Sequence record: NC_054915.1
Length of the DNA stretch: 64,000 bases
Source: Escherichia phage vB_EcoM_G8
Reading direction: 5' to 3' (one strand)
This document shows, piece after piece, positions 3,537 through 48,778 of this stretch. The notes beneath the pieces are model-generated. The model did no database searches. It was given only the letters and a program-made list of their open reading frames with translations, and was not told where the DNA came from. Both the position numbers and the translations under genes were made by a program. Every line of letters starts with the position of its first letter. Position 1 is the stretch's first letter.

Positions 3537-4028
3537 ATGTTTGTAGATGATGTAACACGCGCGTTTGAATCGGGTGATTTTGCGCGACCTAACTTATTCC
3601 AAGTAGAAATTTCTTATCTTGGACAAAATTTTACGTTTCAATGTAAAGCCACTGCTTTACCAGCTGGTATTGTAGAAAAAATTCCAGTCGGATTTATGAA
3701 CCGTAAAATTAACGTAGCAGGCGATCGTACATTCGATGACTGGACCGTTACAGTAATGAACGATGAGGCACATGATGCTCGCCAGAAGTTCGTTGATTGG
3801 CAAAGCATTGCTGCGGGGCAAGGAAACGAAATTACTGGTGGAAAACCTGCAGAGTATAAAAAGAGCGCTATCGTTCGTCAATATGCTCGTGACGCTAAAA
3901 CAGTAACAAAAGAAATTGAAATTAAAGGTCTGTGGCCTACTAACGTGGGTGAACTTCAATTAGATTGGGATTCAAACAATGAAATCCAAACCTTTGAAGT
4001 AACTCTTGCTCTCGATTATTGGGAATAA
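3537..4028 (+). CDS. 19: tail tube protein gp19
   Basis: 163 aa ORF MFVDDVTRAFESGDF…; T4 gp19 length and position. Confidence 0.93.
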   Translation: MFVDDVTRAFESGDFARPNLFQVEISYLGQNFTFQCKATALPAGIVEKIPVGFMNRKINVAGDRTFDDWTVTVMNDEAHDARQKFVDWQSIAAGQGNEITGGKPAEYKKSAIVRQYARDAKTVTKEIEIKGLWPTNVGELQLDWDSNNEIQTFEVTLALDYWE

Positions 4029-4060: not shown

Positions 4061-5685
<1,625 letters not shown>

Positions 5686-5686
<1 letters not shown>

Positions 5687-5925
5687 TGGAAGGTTTAATT
5701 GAAGCTATTAAATCAAACGACCTCGTAGCCGCTCGTAAATTATTTGCTGAAGCCATGGCTGCAAGAACGATTGATTTAATTAAAGAAGAAAAAATCGCTA
5801 TCGCTCGTAATTTCTTAATCGAAGGTGAAGAACCTGAAGACGAGGATGATGACGAAGACGAAGATAGTGATGATAAAGACGACAAAAAAGACGAAGACTC
5901 TGACGAAGACGAGGATGATGAATAA
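5686..5925 (+). CDS. 67: prohead core protein gp67 with acidic C-terminal tail
   Basis: 79 aa; ATGA overlap with gene 20 stop; C-terminus is an Asp/Glu run ([29 protein letters not shown]). Confidence 0.85.
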
Positions 5926-6350
5926 TGCTTCTGATCCCTGAAACTCATGAATTAGTTCTCGAGAATGTCGAAGCACTTATTCCTGAAGCACAGGGTCGCT
6001 TTGACGAATTGTCTTCTGCTTTAAATAAAGACGATATAAATACAATTGTCGAGAATATGCTTGATGATGAAACTGATTTAGCGGTTGCATTAGCTTCTAT
6101 TAATGAAAATATGCCGTTAAATGAATTCATCGTTAAACATGTTTCTGCCCGTGGTGAAATTACTCGCACTAAAGATCGCAAAACCCGCGAACGTAATGCA
6201 TTTCAAACTACCGGGTTGTCTAAAGCAAAACGTAGACAAATTGCTCGTAAAGCTACCAAAACGAAGATTGCCAATCCAGCAGGTCAATCTCGTGCTCAGC
6301 GTAAGCGTAAAAAAGCTCTTAAACGCCGTAAAGCATTAGGATTAAGCTAA
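5925..6350 (+). CDS. 68: prohead core protein gp68
   Basis: 141 aa, overlapping starts/stops with 67 and 21; basic C-terminus. Confidence 0.85.
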
Positions 6351-37878: not shown

Positions 37879-39466
<1,588 letters not shown>

Positions 39467-39474
39467 AATAAAAT

Positions 39475-39488
39475 GGGCCTTGCGGCCC
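39475..39488 (-). terminator. hairpin between nrdB and denA
   Basis: Minus strand GGGCC-GCAA-GGCCC then ATTTTATT. Confidence 0.45.
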
Positions 39489-39493
39489 ACTCC

Positions 39494-39997
39494 TTAAAAG
39501 TATTTTTTAAAACTCATCATAACTTTATCATCAACATCATTATCAATCTGTGCAACAAGATAGGATGACAGTTCTACTTCTTGTGGCGCGGATTGAACAT
39601 TATCAGAATTAAGATATTCACGAATCCAAGGATATGGATGTTTAACCGGAGCATCGGTAATTGGGCATGGAAGACCACACTGTTTCATACGAGATACAGT
39701 TAAGTAATCAATAAAGCTCCACATGCTATTTGTATTTAATCCAGGAACATCGCCATCTTTAAATAAATGAACTGCCCAATCTTTTTCTTGGCGGTTAACT
39801 TCCATGAAAATATCAACTGCTTCTTGTTCACACTCTTGAGCAATTTTAACCCATTCATCACCATCAGTACCGGATTGAAGTTGACGAATAATATATTGAG
39901 TGCCTTTAAGGTGAAGCTGCTCATCACGTGCAATGAACTTCATAATCTTGGCATTACCTTCCATAATTTCCATGTTCTTATGGAAGTTAAAGGTACC
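39494..39997 (-). CDS. nrdB: ribonucleotide reductase small subunit NrdB, exon 2 (5' boundary approximate)
   Basis: Translation …NMEIMEGNAKIMKFIARDEQLHL… matches NrdB C-terminal half; boundary by alignment to E. coli NrdB spacing, +/- few nt. Confidence 0.8.
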   Translation of the reverse strand, partial: GTFNFHKNMEIMEGNAKIMKFIARDEQLHLKGTQYIIRQLQSGTDGDEWVKIAQECEQEAVDIFMEVNRQEKDWAVHLFKDGDVPGLNTNSMWSFIDYLTVSRMKQCGLPCPITDAPVKHPYPWIREYLNSDNVQSAPQEVELSSYLVAQIDNDVDDKVMMSFKKYF

Positions 39998-40592
39998 GTT
40001 ATGTTCGATTGAGCTCGCTAATTCTCAACCCGTTCTCTTATGAACTGCTACATATTACTATGCAGACCAGACTATATCACAATCCCAGAGGGATTCTCCC
40101 CATTTCGAGTCGCTTGACTCTACGTCCGAAGACTAGTCGTTGAACCTTGCTTTGCAATTGTCGCCGTGCCATCGTTTATATGTTGATGGTGATAAATCTT
40201 TCTTATCACAATATGGACAATTCAATTGAATTCTATTTGGATTTAATTTACATCTGTCATTATGTTTTAGATAAAATCCAGGACCTTTACCAATGTGACC
40301 ACAGAAATCACATGTGATTTCTTTTTGTGCAGGATGGGTCCCGTTCTTAACCATTTCTAATGTTTTTGCTGATGTTCTTTTCTTATGGTCTTCCATCAGA
40401 ATCTTTAGGTAGGTCCGTCAGCATCTATCCAAATTTTTCTATAGTTCAATTGTGCATCCTCTTAAAAGTATAATCATATTATACCAATTAAAGGTGCAAG
40501 CAAAACCTTGGCTGCTAGTTTTCCTATAAAGGACTTTCCAGCAATTAAAGGAGTTTTCGATAAACGTTACCGTTTAAAGGCGCATTTTACGC
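39998..40592 (-). mobile_element. group I intron in nrdB with truncated endonuclease ORF (boundaries approximate)
   Basis: nrdB frame interrupted after RFYVSF and resumes ~595 nt downstream; contains 87-aa Cys-rich ORF. Confidence 0.75.
40133..40396 (-). CDS. truncated intron-encoded endonuclease remnant (I-TevIII-like)
   Basis: 87 aa ORF inside nrdB intron; Cys-rich ITCDFCGHIGKG…NCPYCDKK, no complete catalytic domain. Confidence 0.6.
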   Translation of the reverse strand: MEDHKKRTSAKTLEMVKNGTHPAQKEITCDFCGHIGKGPGFYLKHNDRCKLNPNRIQLNCPYCDKKDLSPSTYKRWHGDNCKARFND

Positions 40593-41264
40593 AAAAGATA
40601 CATAAAAACGAATAGCTTCTAAGGCATTAATAACGTGCAAACAGAGGTAAAGAGATTTCATTAAAGCACGTTTAGCTTCGGCTTCTTGCTTAATAGCCCG
40701 GTTTAAACGAAAGTCGGCATCAGGAGATTCTTTAGCTAGTTCTACAAATTCTTTAGCATTTTCCCATTCACGGGTTTTAGTTAAAACATCATCATAATAG
40801 CGACCGATAGATTCAGCACGTTTCATAATAGCTTCATCTAATACAATCTCATCAAATACCTTTGACGGATCAGTATAAAGATTTCGCATGATATGAGTAT
40901 ATGAACGACTGTGAATAGTTTCACTAAAAGTCCATGTAGCAACCCATGTATCAAGGCTTGGGTCTGAAAGCAATGGCATAAGTACAGCAGACGGCGCACG
41001 ACCTTGAATACTATCAAGTAATGATTGATACTTCAGATTATTAGTAAAAATATTTTGTTGATACTGAGGAAGCTTATTAAACTGTGCAGCATCCATCATC
41101 AAGTTTACTTCTTCCGGACGCCAGAAAAACGAGAGCGAACGTTCAATAAGTTCTTCAAATACTCGATGCCGTTGAATATCATAACGCGCAATACCAAGAC
41201 CTGAACCAAAAAACATAGGTTCTTTTAAAACATCGACCTGTTTAGTATTAAAAACTGTACTCAT
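40593..41264 (-). CDS. nrdB: ribonucleotide reductase small subunit NrdB, exon 1 (3' boundary approximate)
   Basis: MSTVFNTKQVDVLKEPMFFGS…EAIRFYVSF then in-frame stop inside intron. Confidence 0.8.
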
Positions 41265-42856
41265 TATTTTGTCCTGTAAACTAAATTTCCACAGTCCCAG
41301 ATTCTTCTAAGACCATTTGCATAACAATTTTCTACTTCAGTTATTGTATCATCATAATTTTTAAGCTTGTTTTTAAGCTTATGTTTCATATAGCTTGAGC
41401 GGTGAAATACCTCTCCTTTATCGACGTACCAATAACATGGCTCAGAGATATGACTAAATTCCATGACAGAGTCATAAACATTTGATAATGTACTGCACCA
41501 TCTTCGATTGCCATAAGATAGACAATTAATTCCTTTTAATAATTTTGAGGCTCCTCCTACAACGCAAACCCCTAATTTTGAACACATCCTTAAAAGTTCA
41601 TCACCCGAGCTATATCTAGATTTACCGATAGAAATAATTTGAACTAACTCATTATTGTAATAAAGTCCTTTATACGTATGAGCTCCTGAGCAAAATCCTT
41701 GAAGATGATTCTTATTAATAAATTCTTTTGCCTCATCCTTATTAACAAAACGCGCTTTGCATTTTCGGGCTGGTATTCTTTCTGATAATCCTAATTTATG
41801 CTTTATAATGGATTTCCAGATCTCTCTTTTTGTATCATCAATCCATTCATTTTCGAAGATGTGAAGTAATTGAATTCCTTGTGCTTCACACATCTCTGTC
41901 TTCATCAAATGATAAGTTTCTTTAATTTTATCTGTTTCCTTTGACCCGCTAGAATGCCAATAAATTCCATCGTATTCTATAGCCAATTTTTTCTCAGGAA
42001 TGTAAATATCTAATTCATACGGAGGAATAATTTTTCTAGTTTCTACGCAATCAAATCCTAGATCTAAAATGAATTGCTCTATAGAACTTTGAGTATAATG
42101 AACGTCAATTAGTCCTTTGGATGAAAGAGCTCTATAAGCCGTCATCCGAGAACAATTTGCTAATTGTTGTAGTTCTTCTATAGAAATTTTGTAATTGATT
42201 TTATCTAGTATATCATGATTAATATGACCGTTATTTTTAATAGATTTTCCTATAGATGAATATAACGATGCCTTATATTCTTCAGTCCAATTTAATTTAG
42301 TCTTCTTAGATTTTTCGCGAGATTTTCTAGAATTCAGAATATCAACTGATTTACCGTTTTCTATAACTTTTCTCGCTTCTTTCACGCTTTCTAATTGTGA
42401 ATTATGCGTTACCCCATATCGTTCAATTAAAGTTTTTCTATTTTTATTTCTTGAAATTTTTTGATGAGTTGTTCCATATTTTTCTAAATAATTTTTGCGT
42501 TGAAGTTCAGACAAATATTTTTTATATTTTTCTTTTCCGCCAAAATTTGTATCACGGCTTTGAATTCTCTTATCCGCGAAAAATATCCCTGCGCAGGATT
42601 TACTACATGTTGCTGGAAATACACGTTTCTTTGCTGTTTTCAGAGAAATGAAATTTCCACAAACTGCACATTTTAGATCGTTAATGTCAATGCCTTCCAT
42701 AATTTGGAACACATTGAGCTTAAAATCTATTCCATCAGTTAGAAGAGCTTTATCTTCTTCTGTTAGTCTAGATTTAAGTTTTTCTTCTCCAAATGGAAGA
42801 AACTTTCCGTTTTTGTATATATTATCAAACATAGCGTTATTCTTAGTTAACCACAT
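41264..42856 (-). CDS. large multidomain nuclease-like protein (Cys cluster, NUMOD3-like repeats, HTH, Vsr/DUF559-like core, unknown C-terminal domain)
   Basis: 530 aa uninterrupted ORF, ATG 42856; stop overlaps nrdB ATG (TAATG); motifs CAVCG…CSKSC, KYGTTHQKIS / ERYGVTHNSQ, YELDIYIPEKKLAIEYDGIYWH. Confidence 0.8.
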   Translation of the reverse strand: MWLTKNNAMFDNIYKNGKFLPFGEEKLKSRLTEEDKALLTDGIDFKLNVFQIMEGIDINDLKCAVCGNFISLKTAKKRVFPATCSKSCAGIFFADKRIQSRDTNFGGKEKYKKYLSELQRKNYLEKYGTTHQKISRNKNRKTLIERYGVTHNSQLESVKEARKVIENGKSVDILNSRKSREKSKKTKLNWTEEYKASLYSSIGKSIKNNGHINHDILDKINYKISIEELQQLANCSRMTAYRALSSKGLIDVHYTQSSIEQFILDLGFDCVETRKIIPPYELDIYIPEKKLAIEYDGIYWHSSGSKETDKIKETYHLMKTEMCEAQGIQLLHIFENEWIDDTKREIWKSIIKHKLGLSERIPARKCKARFVNKDEAKEFINKNHLQGFCSGAHTYKGLYYNNELVQIISIGKSRYSSGDELLRMCSKLGVCVVGGASKLLKGINCLSYGNRRWCSTLSNVYDSVMEFSHISEPCYWYVDKGEVFHRSSYMKHKLKNKLKNYDDTITEVENCYANGLRRIWDCGNLVYRTK

Positions 42857-42872
42857 CCTTGTGGTAATTATA

Positions 42873-45137
42873 TCATAATTTACAGGATGAACAATCTTCA
42901 GCTTTTGGAGTTTCTATTTCATAATCATCAGTACCAGAACCATCGCGGGTATTATGATAATAGAAATTTTTTCCGCCAAAATACCAAAAATACAAAAGGT
43001 CATCAATCATTATTGACATTGGAACCTTTCCTTTTGGAAAAATCTGTGGGTCATAATATGTATTTGCTGAAGCTGATTGACATACCCATTTCAGCATAAT
43101 AGCTACCTGCGTAAGATAAGGTTTATTGCCTTTCTTAGCTAATTTCCACGTATAATCATATAGGTCTATGTTATGCTCAATATTGGGCACGACTTGATTA
43201 AAGGAGCCCTCTTTTGATTCTTTAACAGAGACTGGTCCACGTGGAGGCTCGATACCGTTTGTACTGTTAGAAACTTGGGAAGATGACTCACATGGCATAA
43301 GTGCTGATAATGTGCTATTACGGATGCCAAAGAGCTTAAGGTCTTCCCGCAGCGACGACCAGTCACAAACGTATTTTGGAGCTGCGATTTGGTCAATCTT
43401 TTTATTGTACCAGTCGATAGGTAATTCGCCTCGAGACCAACGAGTGTCTGAATAATATTCGCAAGGTCCTTTTTCTTTGGCGAGCTTAATGGATGCTTTA
43501 ATGAGTCCATACTGTAATCTCTCAAATAGTTCATGTGTTAAATCGTTAGCATCTTCATAAGAAGCAAAGTTACTTGCCAGCCAAGCCGCATAGTTGGTAA
43601 CACCTACACCGAGGTTACGACGCTTTTTAGCTTTTTCTGCTTCAGGAACTGGATATCCTTGATAATCCAAAAGATTATCAAGAGCGCGAACTTGAACTTC
43701 TGCCAATTCATTAATTTTATCTTGGTCTTGCCAATCGAAGTTATCCAACACAAATGCAGATAACGTGCACAAGCCAATTTCCGCATCAGGACTATTCACA
43801 TCATTTGTTGGAATAGCAATTTCACAGCACAAGTTACTCTGACGAATGGGTGCCTTTTCACGAATAAACGGAGTATAGTTATTCGTATTATCAATGAACT
43901 GTACATAAATCCTTGCTGTTCCTGAACGTTCAGTCATGAGCAATTCAAATAGTTCACGGGCTTTAATACGCTTTTTACGAATATTAGGGTCTTTTTCTGC
44001 TGCTTCATATAATTCACGGAAACGGTCTTGGTCTTTAAAATAAGAATAATAAAGCTCGCCACCCATTTCATGCGGACTGAACAAAGTAATGTAATCGTTC
44101 TTTCCGAATCGTTCCATCATTAGATCATTCAGTTGAACACCATAATCCATATGACGAATGCGGTTTTCTTCTACACCTTTGTTATTTTTCAAAACAAGAA
44201 GATTTTCAACTTCCAAATGCCAAATAGGATAATAAGCAGTAGCAGCGCCGCCACGAATTCCACCTTGTGAGCATGATTTAACAGCAGTCTGAAAATGTTT
44301 CCAAAAAGGAATAACACCAGTATGGCGTACTTCACCCATGCCAATCTTAGAACCTTCGGCACGAATCATACCAACGTTAATACCAATTCCAGCACGTTTG
44401 GAGATATATTCAACAATTGAAGCGGAAGCCTTATTGATAGACTTTAATGAATCACCTGCCTCAATAACAACACATGAACTAAACTGTCGAGTCGGAGTAC
44501 GACAACCAGCCATAATAGGAGTTGGTAATGAAATCTGTCGAGTAGATACTGCTTCATAAAAACGGATAACGTGTTTTAATCTATCAACAGGTTCATCTTG
44601 ATGCAGTGCCATTCCAATAGTCATAAATGCAAACTGTGGAGTTTCATAAATTTGACCAGTGGTTTTATCTTTAACTAAATATTTTTCTTTTAATTGCATC
44701 GCCCCGGAATAAGTAAATTCCATATCCCGCTCGTGCTTAATTTTTGATTCTAAAAATGTAATTTCTTCTGCTGAATATTTTGACAATAATTCAGGGTCAT
44801 ATTTACCTGCATTTACACAATAAGAAATATGGTCAATAAATGAACGTGGTTCATACTGCCCATAAACATGCTTACGAAGAGCGAACATTAAACAACGTGC
44901 AGCTACATATTGGTAATCAGGCTCTTCAACCGAAATAGAATTCGCAGCGGCCTTAATGACAATAGTCTGAATATCATCAGTTGTCATTCCATCACGGAGA
45001 TAAGATTTAATATTTTCATATAATTCATAAGGATCTACTGATGTTCCTTCAGCTGCCCAAGATAAAACTTTAATAATTTTTTGTGGGTCAAAGCTCTGAG
45101 AAACACCACTACTTTTGATAACATTAATTAATTGCAT
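42873..45137 (-). CDS. nrdA: ribonucleotide reductase large subunit NrdA
   Basis: 754 aa; N-terminal ATP-cone, catalytic Cys motifs, C-terminal CSSCKL. Confidence 0.93.
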   Translation of the reverse strand: MQLINVIKSSGVSQSFDPQKIIKVLSWAAEGTSVDPYELYENIKSYLRDGMTTDDIQTIVIKAAANSISVEEPDYQYVAARCLMFALRKHVYGQYEPRSFIDHISYCVNAGKYDPELLSKYSAEEITFLESKIKHERDMEFTYSGAMQLKEKYLVKDKTTGQIYETPQFAFMTIGMALHQDEPVDRLKHVIRFYEAVSTRQISLPTPIMAGCRTPTRQFSSCVVIEAGDSLKSINKASASIVEYISKRAGIGINVGMIRAEGSKIGMGEVRHTGVIPFWKHFQTAVKSCSQGGIRGGAATAYYPIWHLEVENLLVLKNNKGVEENRIRHMDYGVQLNDLMMERFGKNDYITLFSPHEMGGELYYSYFKDQDRFRELYEAAEKDPNIRKKRIKARELFELLMTERSGTARIYVQFIDNTNNYTPFIREKAPIRQSNLCCEIAIPTNDVNSPDAEIGLCTLSAFVLDNFDWQDQDKINELAEVQVRALDNLLDYQGYPVPEAEKAKKRRNLGVGVTNYAAWLASNFASYEDANDLTHELFERLQYGLIKASIKLAKEKGPCEYYSDTRWSRGELPIDWYNKKIDQIAAPKYVCDWSSLREDLKLFGIRNSTLSALMPCESSSQVSNSTNGIEPPRGPVSVKESKEGSFNQVVPNIEHNIDLYDYTWKLAKKGNKPYLTQVAIMLKWVCQSASANTYYDPQIFPKGKVPMSIMIDDLLYFWYFGGKNFYYHNTRDGSGTDDYEIETPKAEDCSSCKL

Positions 45138-45454: not shown

Positions 45455-45671
45455 ATTGTTTTTCCGTTAAAACAGTAATATCATAGTAACAATCAGAAGA
45501 AGTTTTAACTGTAGAAATTTTATTATCAAAATACTCACGAGTCATTTTATGAGTATAATATTTTTTGCCATAAATGATAATAGGCTGTTCTGGTCCTGGA
45601 ACTTCTAACTCGCTTGGATTAGGAAGTGTAAAAAGAACAACACCAGAAGTATCTTTAAATCGTAAAATCAT
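45408..45671 (-). CDS. hypothetical protein
   Basis: 87 aa, start overlaps td stop. Confidence 0.55.
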
Positions 45672-45979
45672 ATTGCCATTTTCCCTTTAATTGCTGGATG
45701 CGATTCATAATTTTCAAGGATAAAATCTTTCGGTTTCATGTATTCAGTTAACCAGTAAAGCTGTGTTTCGGTGTCACAATTTCCAAACTCTATAGGCCAA
45801 TCAATTTTAAGTTCACACAGTTCTTTAGGCTCACGACGTAAAATTTCTTTACATTGCTCAGTATGATTCATATAGATATGAGTATTACCACCGGAAAATA
45901 TCAAATCTCCCGGAATAAGATTACACATCTTAGCCACAATATGCGTCAAGGCAGCGTACGAGGCAATGTTGAATGGTAG
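45668..45979 (-). CDS. td: thymidylate synthase, exon 2
   Basis: [39 protein letters not shown]… (ThyA C-terminal); exon1+exon2 = 286 aa. Confidence 0.9.
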
Positions 45980-46995
45980 CATTATGTTCAGATAAGGTCG
46001 TTAATCTTACCCCGGAATTATATCCAGCTGCATGTCACCATGCAGATCAGACTATATCTCCAACTTGTTAAAGCAAGTTGTCTATCGTTTCGAGTCACTT
46101 GACCCTACTCCCCAAAGGGATAGTCGTTAGGCATTTATGTGGAACCAATTCCATTTATCAGATTTTACACGATAAGTAACTAATCCAGACGAAATTTTAA
46201 AATGTCTAGCTGCATCTGCTGCACAATCAAAAATAACCCCATCACATGAAATCTTTTTAATATTACTAGGCTTTTTACCTTTCATCTTTTCTGATATTTT
46301 AGATTTAGTTATGTCTGAATGCTTATGATTAAAGAATGAATTATTTTCACCTGAACGATTTCTGCATTTACTACAAGTATAAGCAGAAGTTTGTATGCGA
46401 ACACCGCACTTACAAAACTTATGGGTTTCTGGATTCCAACGCCCGTTTTTACTTCCGGGTTTACTGTAAAGAGCTTTCCGACCATCAGGTCCAAGTTTAA
46501 GCATCTTAGCTTTAACAGTTTCAGAACGTTTCTTAATAATTTCTTCTTTTAATGGATGCGTAGAACATGTATCACCAAACGTTGCATCAGCAATATTGTA
46601 TCCATTAATTTTAGAATTAAGCTCTTTAATCCAAAAATTTTCTCGTTCAATAATCAAATCTTTCTCATATGGAATTTCTTCCAAAATAGAACATTCAAAC
46701 ACATTACCATGTTTGTTAAAAGACCTCTGAAGTTTTATAGAAGAATGGCATCCTTTTTCTAAATCTTTAAAATGCCTCTTCCATCTCTTTTCAAAATCTT
46801 TAGCACTTCCTACATATACTTTATTGTTTAAAGTATTTTTAATCTGATAAATTCCGCTTTTCATAAATACCTCTTTAAATATAGAAGTATTTATTAAAGG
46901 GCAGTCCTACAATTTAGCACGGGATTGTCTACTAGAGAGGTTCCCCGTTTAGATAGATTACAAGTATAAGTCACCTTATACTCAGGCCTCAATTA
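45980..46995 (-). mobile_element. group I intron in td carrying I-TevI
   Basis: td reading frame interrupted between …VFLG and LPFNIASY…; 1016-nt intervening segment contains I-TevI ORF. Confidence 0.85.
46127..46864 (-). CDS. intron-encoded GIY-YIG homing endonuclease I-TevI
   Basis: 245 aa MKSGIYQIKNTLNNKVYVGSAKDFEKRWKRH…; lies inside td intron. Confidence 0.93.
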   Translation of the reverse strand: MKSGIYQIKNTLNNKVYVGSAKDFEKRWKRHFKDLEKGCHSSIKLQRSFNKHGNVFECSILEEIPYEKDLIIERENFWIKELNSKINGYNIADATFGDTCSTHPLKEEIIKKRSETVKAKMLKLGPDGRKALYSKPGSKNGRWNPETHKFCKCGVRIQTSAYTCSKCRNRSGENNSFFNHKHSDITKSKISEKMKGKKPSNIKKISCDGVIFDCAADAARHFKISSGLVTYRVKSDKWNWFHINA

Positions 46996-47544
46996 ACCCA
47001 AGAAAACATCTACTGATCGTTGATACCACTGCAAATCCAAATAACCATTACGCACATTAAACTGATAGAACATATGACAGGGCGGTAATGCCATTTGATT
47101 GATTTCAGCTGGATTCCATGCTGAAACGATTTGACGTCGATCAGTTGGTAATTTTTTAATACGATCAATAGTTTCAACTAATTGATCCACACCACCGAAA
47201 TCACGCCATTGTTTACCGTATATAGGACCAAGTTCACCACTATGATATCCTAGGTCTTTAGCCTGGTTTTCATAGTTATCGTCCCAAATAGTTTTACCTT
47301 GAATAAGACTACCATGAGTGCGAAGACGTAAATCATTAACATTGGTAGAACCGGAAATAAACCATAAAAGCTCAGCAACGCATGCATTCCAGGCGAGCTT
47401 CTTAGTTGTTACTGCAGGAAAACCTTTGGTTAAATCCCAACGCAATTTAGTACCGAACAGAGCAATTGTTCCTGTGCCCGTTCGGTCATCGGTTTCATAG
47501 CCATTTTCAAAAATGTCTTTAATTAAATCTTGGTATTGTTTCAT
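46996..47544 (-). CDS. td: thymidylate synthase, exon 1
   Basis: MKQYQDLIKDIFENGYETDDRTGTGT…QWYQRSVDVFLG; in-frame stop follows inside intron. Confidence 0.9.
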
Positions 47545-47589: not shown

Positions 47590-47937
47590 TCAATACGGTT
47601 TAGCATCAAATTTTCTCTCAATTTCAGGCGTGAAATATAATTCTTTACCGCGTTTGGAAAAGCGACCAATAATATGATAATTATTCTCATCAAACGTGAT
47701 ATTACCAATATCCATAGCTTTCAACCAAATATCGATATTTCTATCCAGCTTTATGTCAAAATTCCAATACGGAGAACTATTACCGAAAATACTGCAAGCG
47801 GATTCAGTGAAACAACTGCTATAAATCTTGTCTTTAGGAACTACTAATTGATAGACACCTTTAATAAACTGAGGACCCTGCCACTTTGGCTGTTTCGCGT
47901 CTTTTTCTAATAAAATAGGGTAATAATTAAAATTCAT
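47590..47937 (-). CDS. hypothetical protein in frd-td insertion cassette
   Basis: ATG 47937 gives 115 aa MNFNYYPILLEKDAKQPKWQGPQFIKG…; no recognisable motif. Confidence 0.6.
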   Translation of the reverse strand: MNFNYYPILLEKDAKQPKWQGPQFIKGVYQLVVPKDKIYSSCFTESACSIFGNSSPYWNFDIKLDRNIDIWLKAMDIGNITFDENNYHIIGRFSKRGKELYFTPEIERKFDAKPY

Positions 47938-47957
47938 ATTTTCCGCCACGCGTTATT

Positions 47958-48778
<821 letters not shown>

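Follow-up and report, generated by a model that had tools for sequence, protein, structure and literature searches.

The nrdB group I intron of Escherichia phage vB_EcoM_G8, its I-TevIII remnant and the adjoining hef gene

The nrdB gene of bacteriophage T4 contains a group I intron, which was reportedly described by Sjöberg et al. 1986. Its I-TevIII endonuclease gene is said to have been recognised as a deletion mutant by Eddy & Gold 1991, and the hef-nrdB locus of phage U5 is reportedly the subject of a study by Sandegren, Nord & Sjöberg 2005. The T4 record (NC_000866) annotates a 'defective DNA endonuclease… deletion in proximal half'. Phage RB3 has the same intron at the same site, in a form of 1091 nt with a functional I-TevIII nuclease, which is self-mobile; in RB3, mobE lies upstream of nrdB. 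RB3 I-TevIII is a protein of 269 aa with an H-N-H motif in its N-terminal part and two zinc fingers (Robbins et al. 2007, PMC1865063). The zinc fingers follow the motif CX2CX12-13HX3C and involve C211/C214 and C242/C245, the minimum DNA-binding domain begins at residue 166, and residues 194-241 form the dimerisation region (PMC1865063). A late promoter of I-TevIII exists (PMC2988022).

An intron with a defunct endonuclease can still be inherited with the help of a neighbour. MobE of T4, encoded in the intergenic slot between nrdA and nrdB, nicks the nrdB gene of T2, and inheritance of the defunct T4 intron is MobE-dependent, with a maximum co-conversion distance of about 2 kb (Wilson & Edgell 2009, PMC2790892). 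For Hef of U5, a review states that the enzyme cleaves nrdB (PMC2988022). Hef-type enzymes have been assigned to the 'EDxHD' family (PMC3239194).

In this study, we analysed a 64,000-nt stretch of the genome of Escherichia phage vB_EcoM_G8 (NC_054915.1), here called the window; all coordinates are window positions, and all features described lie on the minus strand. With high probability, the locus is explained by a T-even nrdB group I intron with a dead I-TevIII gene and with adjoining hef as the candidate mobiliser. The nrdB intron, the deleted I-TevIII, Hef and the concept of trans-homing have each been published, so that the feature in G8 is already known. An earlier sequence-only reading of this DNA had framed it as a fresh finding; it is a textbook T4 feature.

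Structure of the interrupted nrdB gene and the intron core

The window derives from a Tequatrovirus (T4-like coliphage). Genes on its minus strand come in the order pseT, rnlA, denA, nrdB, a 530-aa ORF, nrdA, nrdA.1/.2 and td, and comparison of synteny with T4 and RB3 showed the pseT-to-td region to be ordered as in T4. Over 24 kb, vB_Eco_F26 has the closest genome (97.4% identity). Dozens of Tequatrovirus genomes match the 1.9-kb nrdB region at 94-99% identity, and the interruption of nrdB is therefore no chance pattern.

Without splicing, the nrdB exon 1 ORF extends from 41264 down to 40587, where …RFYVSFA is followed by TAA; the frame is re-entered in exon 2, some 600 nt downstream, with …TFNFHKNMEIMEGNAK…. 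Exon and intron boundaries were set by in-silico splicing and by aligning the locus to the nrdB genes of T4, RB3 and U5, whose two exons are annotated. Exon 1 (40589..41264, 676 nt) ends with …TTT GCG T, its last base being U in the RNA. The intron (39997..40588, 592 nt; group I, IA-type) runs from AAAATGCGCC to GAACATAACG and ends with G. Exon 2 (39494..39996, 503 nt including the stop codon) starts with GT ACC TTT AAC…. In-silico splicing gives an NrdB of 392 aa with zero stops, which is collinear with the NrdB proteins of T4 (388 aa), RB3 (392 aa) and U5. The codon at the junction is Cys, split T|GT, and the junction …FYVSFA-C-TFNFHK… is identical in T4, RB3 and U5. The sequence-only reading had rightly noticed that the nrdB frame stops and resumes, but its coordinates (39998..40592) miss the true ends by 1 nt and 4 nt, respectively, and in the junction that it proposed, 'GTFNFHK', intron bases were taken as exon.

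By site and sequence, the insert is identified as the T4/RB3-type nrdB group I intron; the sequence-only reading had rightly called it an nrdB group I intron. The insertion site is the same as in T4, RB3 and U5 (alignments also took in 12 further phages), and the boundary shows the group I hallmarks …GCGU|AAAAUGCG…AUAACG|GUACC, with U ending the 5' exon and G ending the intron. The G8 intron aligns end to end with the introns of T4 (598 nt), RB3 (1091 nt) and U5 (1083 nt), with otherwise few substitutions and indels. T4 and G8 have in common the gene, the insertion site, the splice junction, the boundaries of a 491-nt deletion and the zinc-finger C-terminus of the intron ORF, and between their introns only scattered differences are seen.

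A covariance-model search for group I core elements, which the sequence-only reading had suggested as a check, gave a divided answer. At the Rfam gathering threshold, a scan of positions 30000-64000 returned zero RF00028 matches, so that neither the nrdB intron nor the td intron was picked up; we regard this as a false negative caused by ORF inserts. In an E-value scan, the G8 nrdB intron scored 33.8 bits (E = 8.8e-7) and did not reach the gathering score of 50 bits. The experimentally proven T4 nrdB intron, run as a control under the same conditions, scored 35.7 bits. The natural ORF-less allele of Shigella phage SP21535, which is 300 nt long, scored 69.1 bits (E = 1.8e-17) over the full model (1-253), and after removal of a 292-nt insert the G8 intron differs from this allele at 2 of 300 nt. 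The low score of the G8 intron is therefore due to the ORF-holding insert in the P6 loop (40162..40453) and not to a core defect. This insert has ACAATTG repeats on both sides, and since it is missing in the natural SP21535 mini-intron it is dispensable for the core.

The elements of the core could be placed one by one. Its 5' half (40510..40575), mapped to the window through the RF00028 alignment of SP21535, comprises the P2 hairpin with a GUAA loop (40562-40575), the 5' strand of P3 (40547-40556) and P4-P5 (40510-40546). The 3' half of the catalytic core (40048..40142) was aligned to RF00028 for both the window and SP21535. It begins with J6/7 and the 5' strand of P7, CAACGACUA (40131-40142), which matches the consensus, and continues with the P7.1 UUCG hairpin (40124-40133), P7.2 (40107-40120), P3' (40096-40103), P8 (40081-40095), J8/7 with the 3' strand of P7, GUGAUAUAGUCU (40069-40080), and the P9 GUAA hairpin (40048-40065). 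All of the core strands J6/7-P7, P7.1/P7.2, P3', P8, J8/7-P7' and P9 are found in the G8 intron, and the J8/7-P7' segment GAUAUAGUCU fits the RF00028 consensus. Among the differences between the T4-type and the RB3/G8-type P9 is one fully compensatory change from G-C to A-U. A G-to-A change specific to G8 converts a G•U pair of P7.2 into A-U.

The T4 nrdB intron is reported to be self-splicing (cited in PMC2790892 and PMC2988022). Because it is near-identical to this experimentally self-splicing intron, the G8 intron, with its core intact, is almost certainly splicing-competent. The intron RNA would fold into P1-P9 with the P7.1/P7.2 extension of the IA type and would splice itself out with guanosine as cofactor, joining …GCG U to GU ACC… in the message for the 392-aa NrdB. 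That the insert is instead a sequencing or assembly error, or that nrdB has been inactivated, is so improbable that it can be set aside: the same insert occupies the same site in more than 100 independent phage records, it has the boundary hallmarks of a group I intron, its splicing restores full NrdB and its catalytic core is intact. Sequence comparisons yielded no support for an artefact or a pseudogene, and this explanation is in effect refuted.

Decay of the I-TevIII gene

The sole substantial ORF inside the G8 intron encodes a Cys-rich product of 87 aa (40133..40396). A Pfam search of this ORF found no HNH domain and gave sub-threshold zinc-ribbon noise only; its identity was decided by PHROGs and by direct comparison with RB3 I-TevIII. 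The ORF matches phrog_12324, a full-length I-TevIII profile, over positions 184-269 of 269 only, and it is identical to the 269-aa RB3 protein at 86/86 residues over the same segment. The alignment to full-length I-TevIII proposed in the sequence-only reading thus bears out its description of a decayed endonuclease ORF without a complete nuclease domain: residues 184-269 are left and the H-N-H part is absent. Two CX2CX12-13HX3C zinc fingers are present, CDFCGHIGKGPGFYLKHNDRC and CPYCDKKDLSPSTYKRWHGDNC. Judged against the domain map of the RB3 enzyme, the remnant is the C-terminal third of I-TevIII, in which the two zinc fingers survive along with the dimerisation region; it lacks the H-N-H nuclease as well as part of the DNA-binding domain.

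Compared with RB3, the G8 intron misses 491 nt, corresponding to RB3 intron positions ~204/208 to 694/698. The deletion is bordered by the 8-nt direct repeats GAAGAaCA and GAAGAcCA. A single copy, GAAGACCA, is left at the junction in G8 (40386..40393), whereas T4 keeps the other variant, GAAGAACA, so that the junction base is C in G8 and A in T4. The start ATG of the 87-aa ORF is a chance product of this junction. What remains of the native I-TevIII start (40405..40449), located by sequence and alignments, reads TTG AAC TAT…, that is MNYRKIWIDADGPT followed by a stop. Through a 2-nt deletion (RB3 positions 184-185) together with the 491-nt deletion, the native start and the zinc-finger ORF no longer share a reading frame. 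A further 6 nt (AATATA, RB3 109-114) are missing at 40478..40483, with the deletion point between 40480 and 40481; this loss takes away the late-promoter motif TATAAATA upstream of I-TevIII, recognised by means of the T4 late-promoter consensus, and is common to U5 and most hef-linked alleles. G8 has therefore gone beyond T4 by the 6-nt and the 2-nt deletion, its late-promoter motif is gone, and its ORF is 87 aa long where that of T4 has 97 aa. The 3' half of the G8 intron carries markers of the RB3/U5 type, not of the T4 type.

A deletion between 8-nt direct repeats, as in T4, has stripped the gene of its H-N-H domain, the 2-nt deletion has uncoupled the start, and the 6-nt deletion has removed the late-promoter motif. 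From its sequence we judge G8 I-TevIII to be defunct. Loss of the H-N-H domain, of the coupled start and of the promoter motif would leave the intron unable to home by itself. We consider both the identity and self-splicing of the intron and the death of its I-TevIII essentially certain, as far as sequence can establish them.

It might be asked whether the 87-aa zinc-finger and dimerisation module has been kept as a trans-acting factor, either as a dominant-negative heterodimer partner that poisons the full-length I-TevIII, a dimer-dependent enzyme, of a co-infecting phage or as a DNA-binding regulator. The module preserves its two zinc fingers and the dimerisation region (residues 194-241), with 100% identity to RB3 over 86 aa, and at least 69 aa of C-terminal ORF persist in all alleles with a deletion of the 491-nt class. 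Conservation of the whole region is 96-99%, however, and hence identity carries no signal of selection. The ORF has lost its connection to the native start and the ribosome-binding site, the late-promoter motif has disappeared, and the minimum DNA-binding domain is short of residues 166-183. Among sister alleles, some have A-run frameshifts, that of SG1 is left with a 42-aa stump, and those of SP21535 and CJY920 contain no ORF. Moreover, intron-containing alleles are without a homing site and would gain nothing from a block of I-TevIII. A function of the remnant in trans is therefore very improbable.

The neighbouring hef gene and trans-homing

Between nrdA and nrdB lies an intact ORF of 530 aa (41264..42856), in which the sequence-only reading had seen a large intact nuclease-like gene. 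Its product is 98.9% identical over 530 aa to Hef of phage U5 (AY262133), which is encoded in the same slot, and it matches phrog_3339 'homing endonuclease' (E = 4.7e-152). By this similarity we identify it as Hef, a characterised free-standing homing endonuclease whose type has been assigned to the Vsr-like 'EDxHD' enzymes (PMC3239194). Matches of Hef to Vsr-type models are weak: PF18741 (E = 1.5e-4, below its cutoff), DUF559 (E = 0.0085) and 3r3p (E = 0.028). In the weak alignment with 3r3p (I-Bth0305I), the catalytic D196 and H213 are paired with D283 and H301 of Hef, and N208 is paired with D296. The hef stop codon and the nrdB ATG share 1 nt (TAATG). On the upstream flank of the hef insertion, nrdA (42873..45137, 754 aa) is uninterrupted.

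Phage U5 agrees with G8 in the order nrdA, hef and intron-bearing nrdB and in the 6-nt promoter-region deletion. Unlike G8, its intron of 1083 nt includes the H-N-H region, and owing to a 2-nt gap in the deposited sequence its ORF falls into two pieces of 65 and 220 aa. In T4, the neighbour genes are nrdB.1 and mobE in place of hef. The pair of MobE and the T4 intron resembles the G8 locus in its defunct intron endonuclease, in a free-standing gene between nrdA and nrdB whose product targets nrdB, and in the co-conversion range. It differs in the helper, an H-N-H enzyme in T4 (MobE) and an enzyme assigned to the Vsr-like EDxHD fold in G8 (Hef), and dependence of the intron has been shown for MobE only.

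By analogy with MobE, Hef would cut the nrdB gene of another phage in a mixed infection, and the break would be repaired from the G8-type genome. In this way hef would be copied and the intron often co-converted, an outcome termed 'trans-homing'. The distance from the 3' end of hef to the intron insertion site is 676 nt, within the range of up to 2 kb given for the MobE system (PMC2790892). Trans-homing by the neighbouring gene, as put forward in the sequence-only reading, is plausible for Hef as a fair, literature-backed analogy to the case of MobE and I-TevIII. To the narrower claim that Hef is the mobiliser of the G8 nrdB intron, for which geometry and the population association described below speak along with the analogy, we give an even chance.

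Distribution and descent of hef-linked nrdB alleles

Public genomes contain 14 phages with a Hef at least 95% identical to that of G8 at the nrdA/nrdB locus, and these formed our survey set. The state of the intron was read from their sequences, except in FL44, where it was inferred from identity searches. The nrdB intron is present in 13 of the 14 phages, and an intact I-TevIII in none (0/14). U5 has the 1083-nt intron with the 2-nt frameshift as deposited. A deletion of the 491-nt class is found in nine phages (F26, FL23, FL44, LH2, Lv5cm, FL12, FL18, Manna and ESh36), every such allele retaining the C-terminal ORF of at least 69 aa. The SG1 intron is reduced to 420 nt, with the 42-aa ORF stump, and the introns of CJY920 (309 nt) and SP21535 (300 nt) are ORF-less. 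N2 has hef and an intronless nrdB. Hef-linked introns thus form a series of lengths from 1083 nt (frameshifted) through ~587-599, 420, 309 and 300 nt (ORF-less) to 0 nt. The arrangement of hef with a deleted intron recurs at 98-99% identity in F26, FL23, LH2 and others, and it is present in at least nine deposited phage genomes.

In the whole collection, the 3' core of the intron was found in 126 records and the intronless junction in 302. The intron occurs in 14/15 hef-positive records as against 112/413 others (Fisher odds ratio 37.6, p = 2.4e-7); the records are related and not independent, and because they share the locus by descent the odds ratio is descriptive only and no measure of mobilisation. 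Exon 1 of nrdB is nearly identical in many hef-positive phages. A hef-linked haplotype block extending to the intron was sought among the hef-carrying phages: between hef and the intron, exon 1 is mosaic, and only its first ~30 nt are uniformly hef-specific. This mosaicism implies frequent uncoupling of hef from the intron.

The same data can be read without any mobilisation by Hef. The intron would then be a decaying relic in nrdB, harmless through splicing and rarely lost with precision, and its co-occurrence with hef would reflect descent of a haplotype. We rate this passive persistence as a serious alternative with somewhat less than an even chance. It accords with the full degeneration series among hef-linked alleles, which is expected for loss after fixation, and with the near-same exon 1 haplotype in most hef-positive phages. 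N2 shows that hef occurs without the intron. Phage 215Ecol030PP shows the deleted intron without any helper gene, with 51 nt between nrdA and nrdB. These two phages, the mosaicism of exon 1 and the degeneration series weigh against a tight dependence of the intron on hef. Against a merely passive intron stand the MobE-dependent inheritance of the same defunct intron in T4 (PMC2790892), the report that Hef cuts nrdB (PMC2988022), the position of the intron well inside the co-conversion range and the occurrence of the 491-nt-deleted allele on differing flanking backgrounds, which suggests horizontal spread. As to mobilisation by Hef, it may be, with the scales about level, that in a wild Tequatrovirus lineage Hef took over as the engine of nrdB-intron mobility and so relaxed selection on I-TevIII.

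The G8 locus alone carries little weight, and its value is modest, that of a population snapshot. In the literature consulted on the nrdB intron, Hef and trans-homing we did not find the 'T4 deletion' described in wild recombinant backgrounds with linkage to hef and not to mobE; likewise, we did not find there that hef-linked alleles never have an intact I-TevIII, or an account of ORF-less mini-introns produced by a second deletion between repeats (ACAATTG). The '1991 T4 deletion' is no laboratory oddity, as it circulates in wild isolates and in several recombinant backgrounds. Hef-linked alleles span the life cycle of a homing element, with a frameshifted endonuclease gene, deleted and ORF-less introns and an intronless gene. 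This makes the nrdB/hef locus a convenient natural system for asking whether the unrelated Hef substitutes for MobE in trans-homing.

Concerning the origin of the 491-nt deletion, we considered that it might have arisen in G8 independently of T4, in view of C versus A at the junction and of the RB3/U5-like flanks. These features are not decisive, since with an 8-nt repeat the deletion could have arisen more than once or, equally, only once with recombination afterwards. In Manna, 3' markers of the T4 type occur together with the C junction, a combination that favours recombination. The deleted allele is found on differing flanking backgrounds, with T4-type and with RB3-type 3' markers, which implies that it has probably spread horizontally by recombination. 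Small indels are concentrated in the 57 nt that follow the junction. We considered selection for the 69 C-terminal residues as a reason and dropped it: of the three indels, two are losses of one base within A-runs, which are hot spots of slippage and of sequencing error, and in other alleles larger deletions take away the whole ORF. The ORF-less mini-introns, to judge from the repeats beside the P6-loop insert, arose by a second repeat-mediated deletion, between the copies of ACAATTG.

Deleted nrdB introns with and without a neighbouring endonuclease gene

In phage 215Ecol030PP, nrdA and nrdB are separated by a spacer of only 51 nt (3604..3656 of the compared locus L016) with no gene in between, and its nrdB intron is the 491-nt-deleted form. 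Thus, the defunct intron can occur without an adjacent helper endonuclease. Phage N2 carries an intronless, uninterrupted nrdB (5093..6271 of locus L006) adjoining hef, the free-standing homing endonuclease gene.

Three hef-linked phages possess even smaller nrdB introns. SP21535 (300 nt, 5605..5904 of locus L008) and CJY920 (309 nt) harbour introns devoid of any ORF, which arose through loss of the sequence between ACAATTG repeats, and the 420-nt intron of SG1 retains a 42-aa stump. The 300-nt form scores 69.1 bits, which is above the Rfam group I gathering score. Two phage records labelled Pseudoalteromonas share 80-90% identity with the 136-nt 3' core of the window nrdB intron, as taken from the match list only.

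As deposited, the 'full-length' I-TevIII of phage U5 (AY262133) shows a gap of 2 nt when compared with RB3, at intron positions of about 295-296 (301-302 in RB3 numbering). The gap breaks the ORF into a 65-aa part, which includes the H-N-H motif, and a 220-aa part. Either the U5 I-TevIII is defunct as well, or AY262133 contains a sequencing error.

Endonuclease genes in and near nrdA

Both N2 and LH2 encode a GIY-YIG endonuclease just upstream of nrdA on the opposite strand, a gene that the window lacks. In the close relatives F26, FL12, Manna and FL23, an inserted gene annotated as HNH or homing endonuclease splits nrdA into two ORFs, an arrangement similar to that published for nrdA in Aeromonas phage Aeh1. 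In the window, nrdA (42873..45137) is intact.

Junctions flanking nrdB in the window

The nrdB start codon and the hef stop codon overlap by one base (TAATG) at 41264, which suggests either translational coupling or a very tidy hef insertion. Immediately 3' of nrdB exon 2 lies denA, encoding the GIY-YIG protein endonuclease II (39056..39490, minus strand; 144 aa from a GTG start). Its annotated length is 144 aa (435 nt) in T4, as compared to 136 aa (411 nt) in related phages.

The td intron and the frd-td interval

Another split gene of the window, as in T4, is td (45668..47544, minus strand), consisting of exon 1 (46993..47544) and exon 2 (45668..45982). Its intron contains an intact 245-aa GIY-YIG ORF encoding I-TevI (46127..46864, same strand). 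Like the nrdB intron, the td intron gave no match in the Rfam scan at the gathering threshold. Between td and frd (47958..48539) lies a 119-aa ORF (47590..47949, minus strand) that matches, at E = 9.5e-36, the family phrog_1928, whose function is unknown. In T4, frd adjoins td directly.
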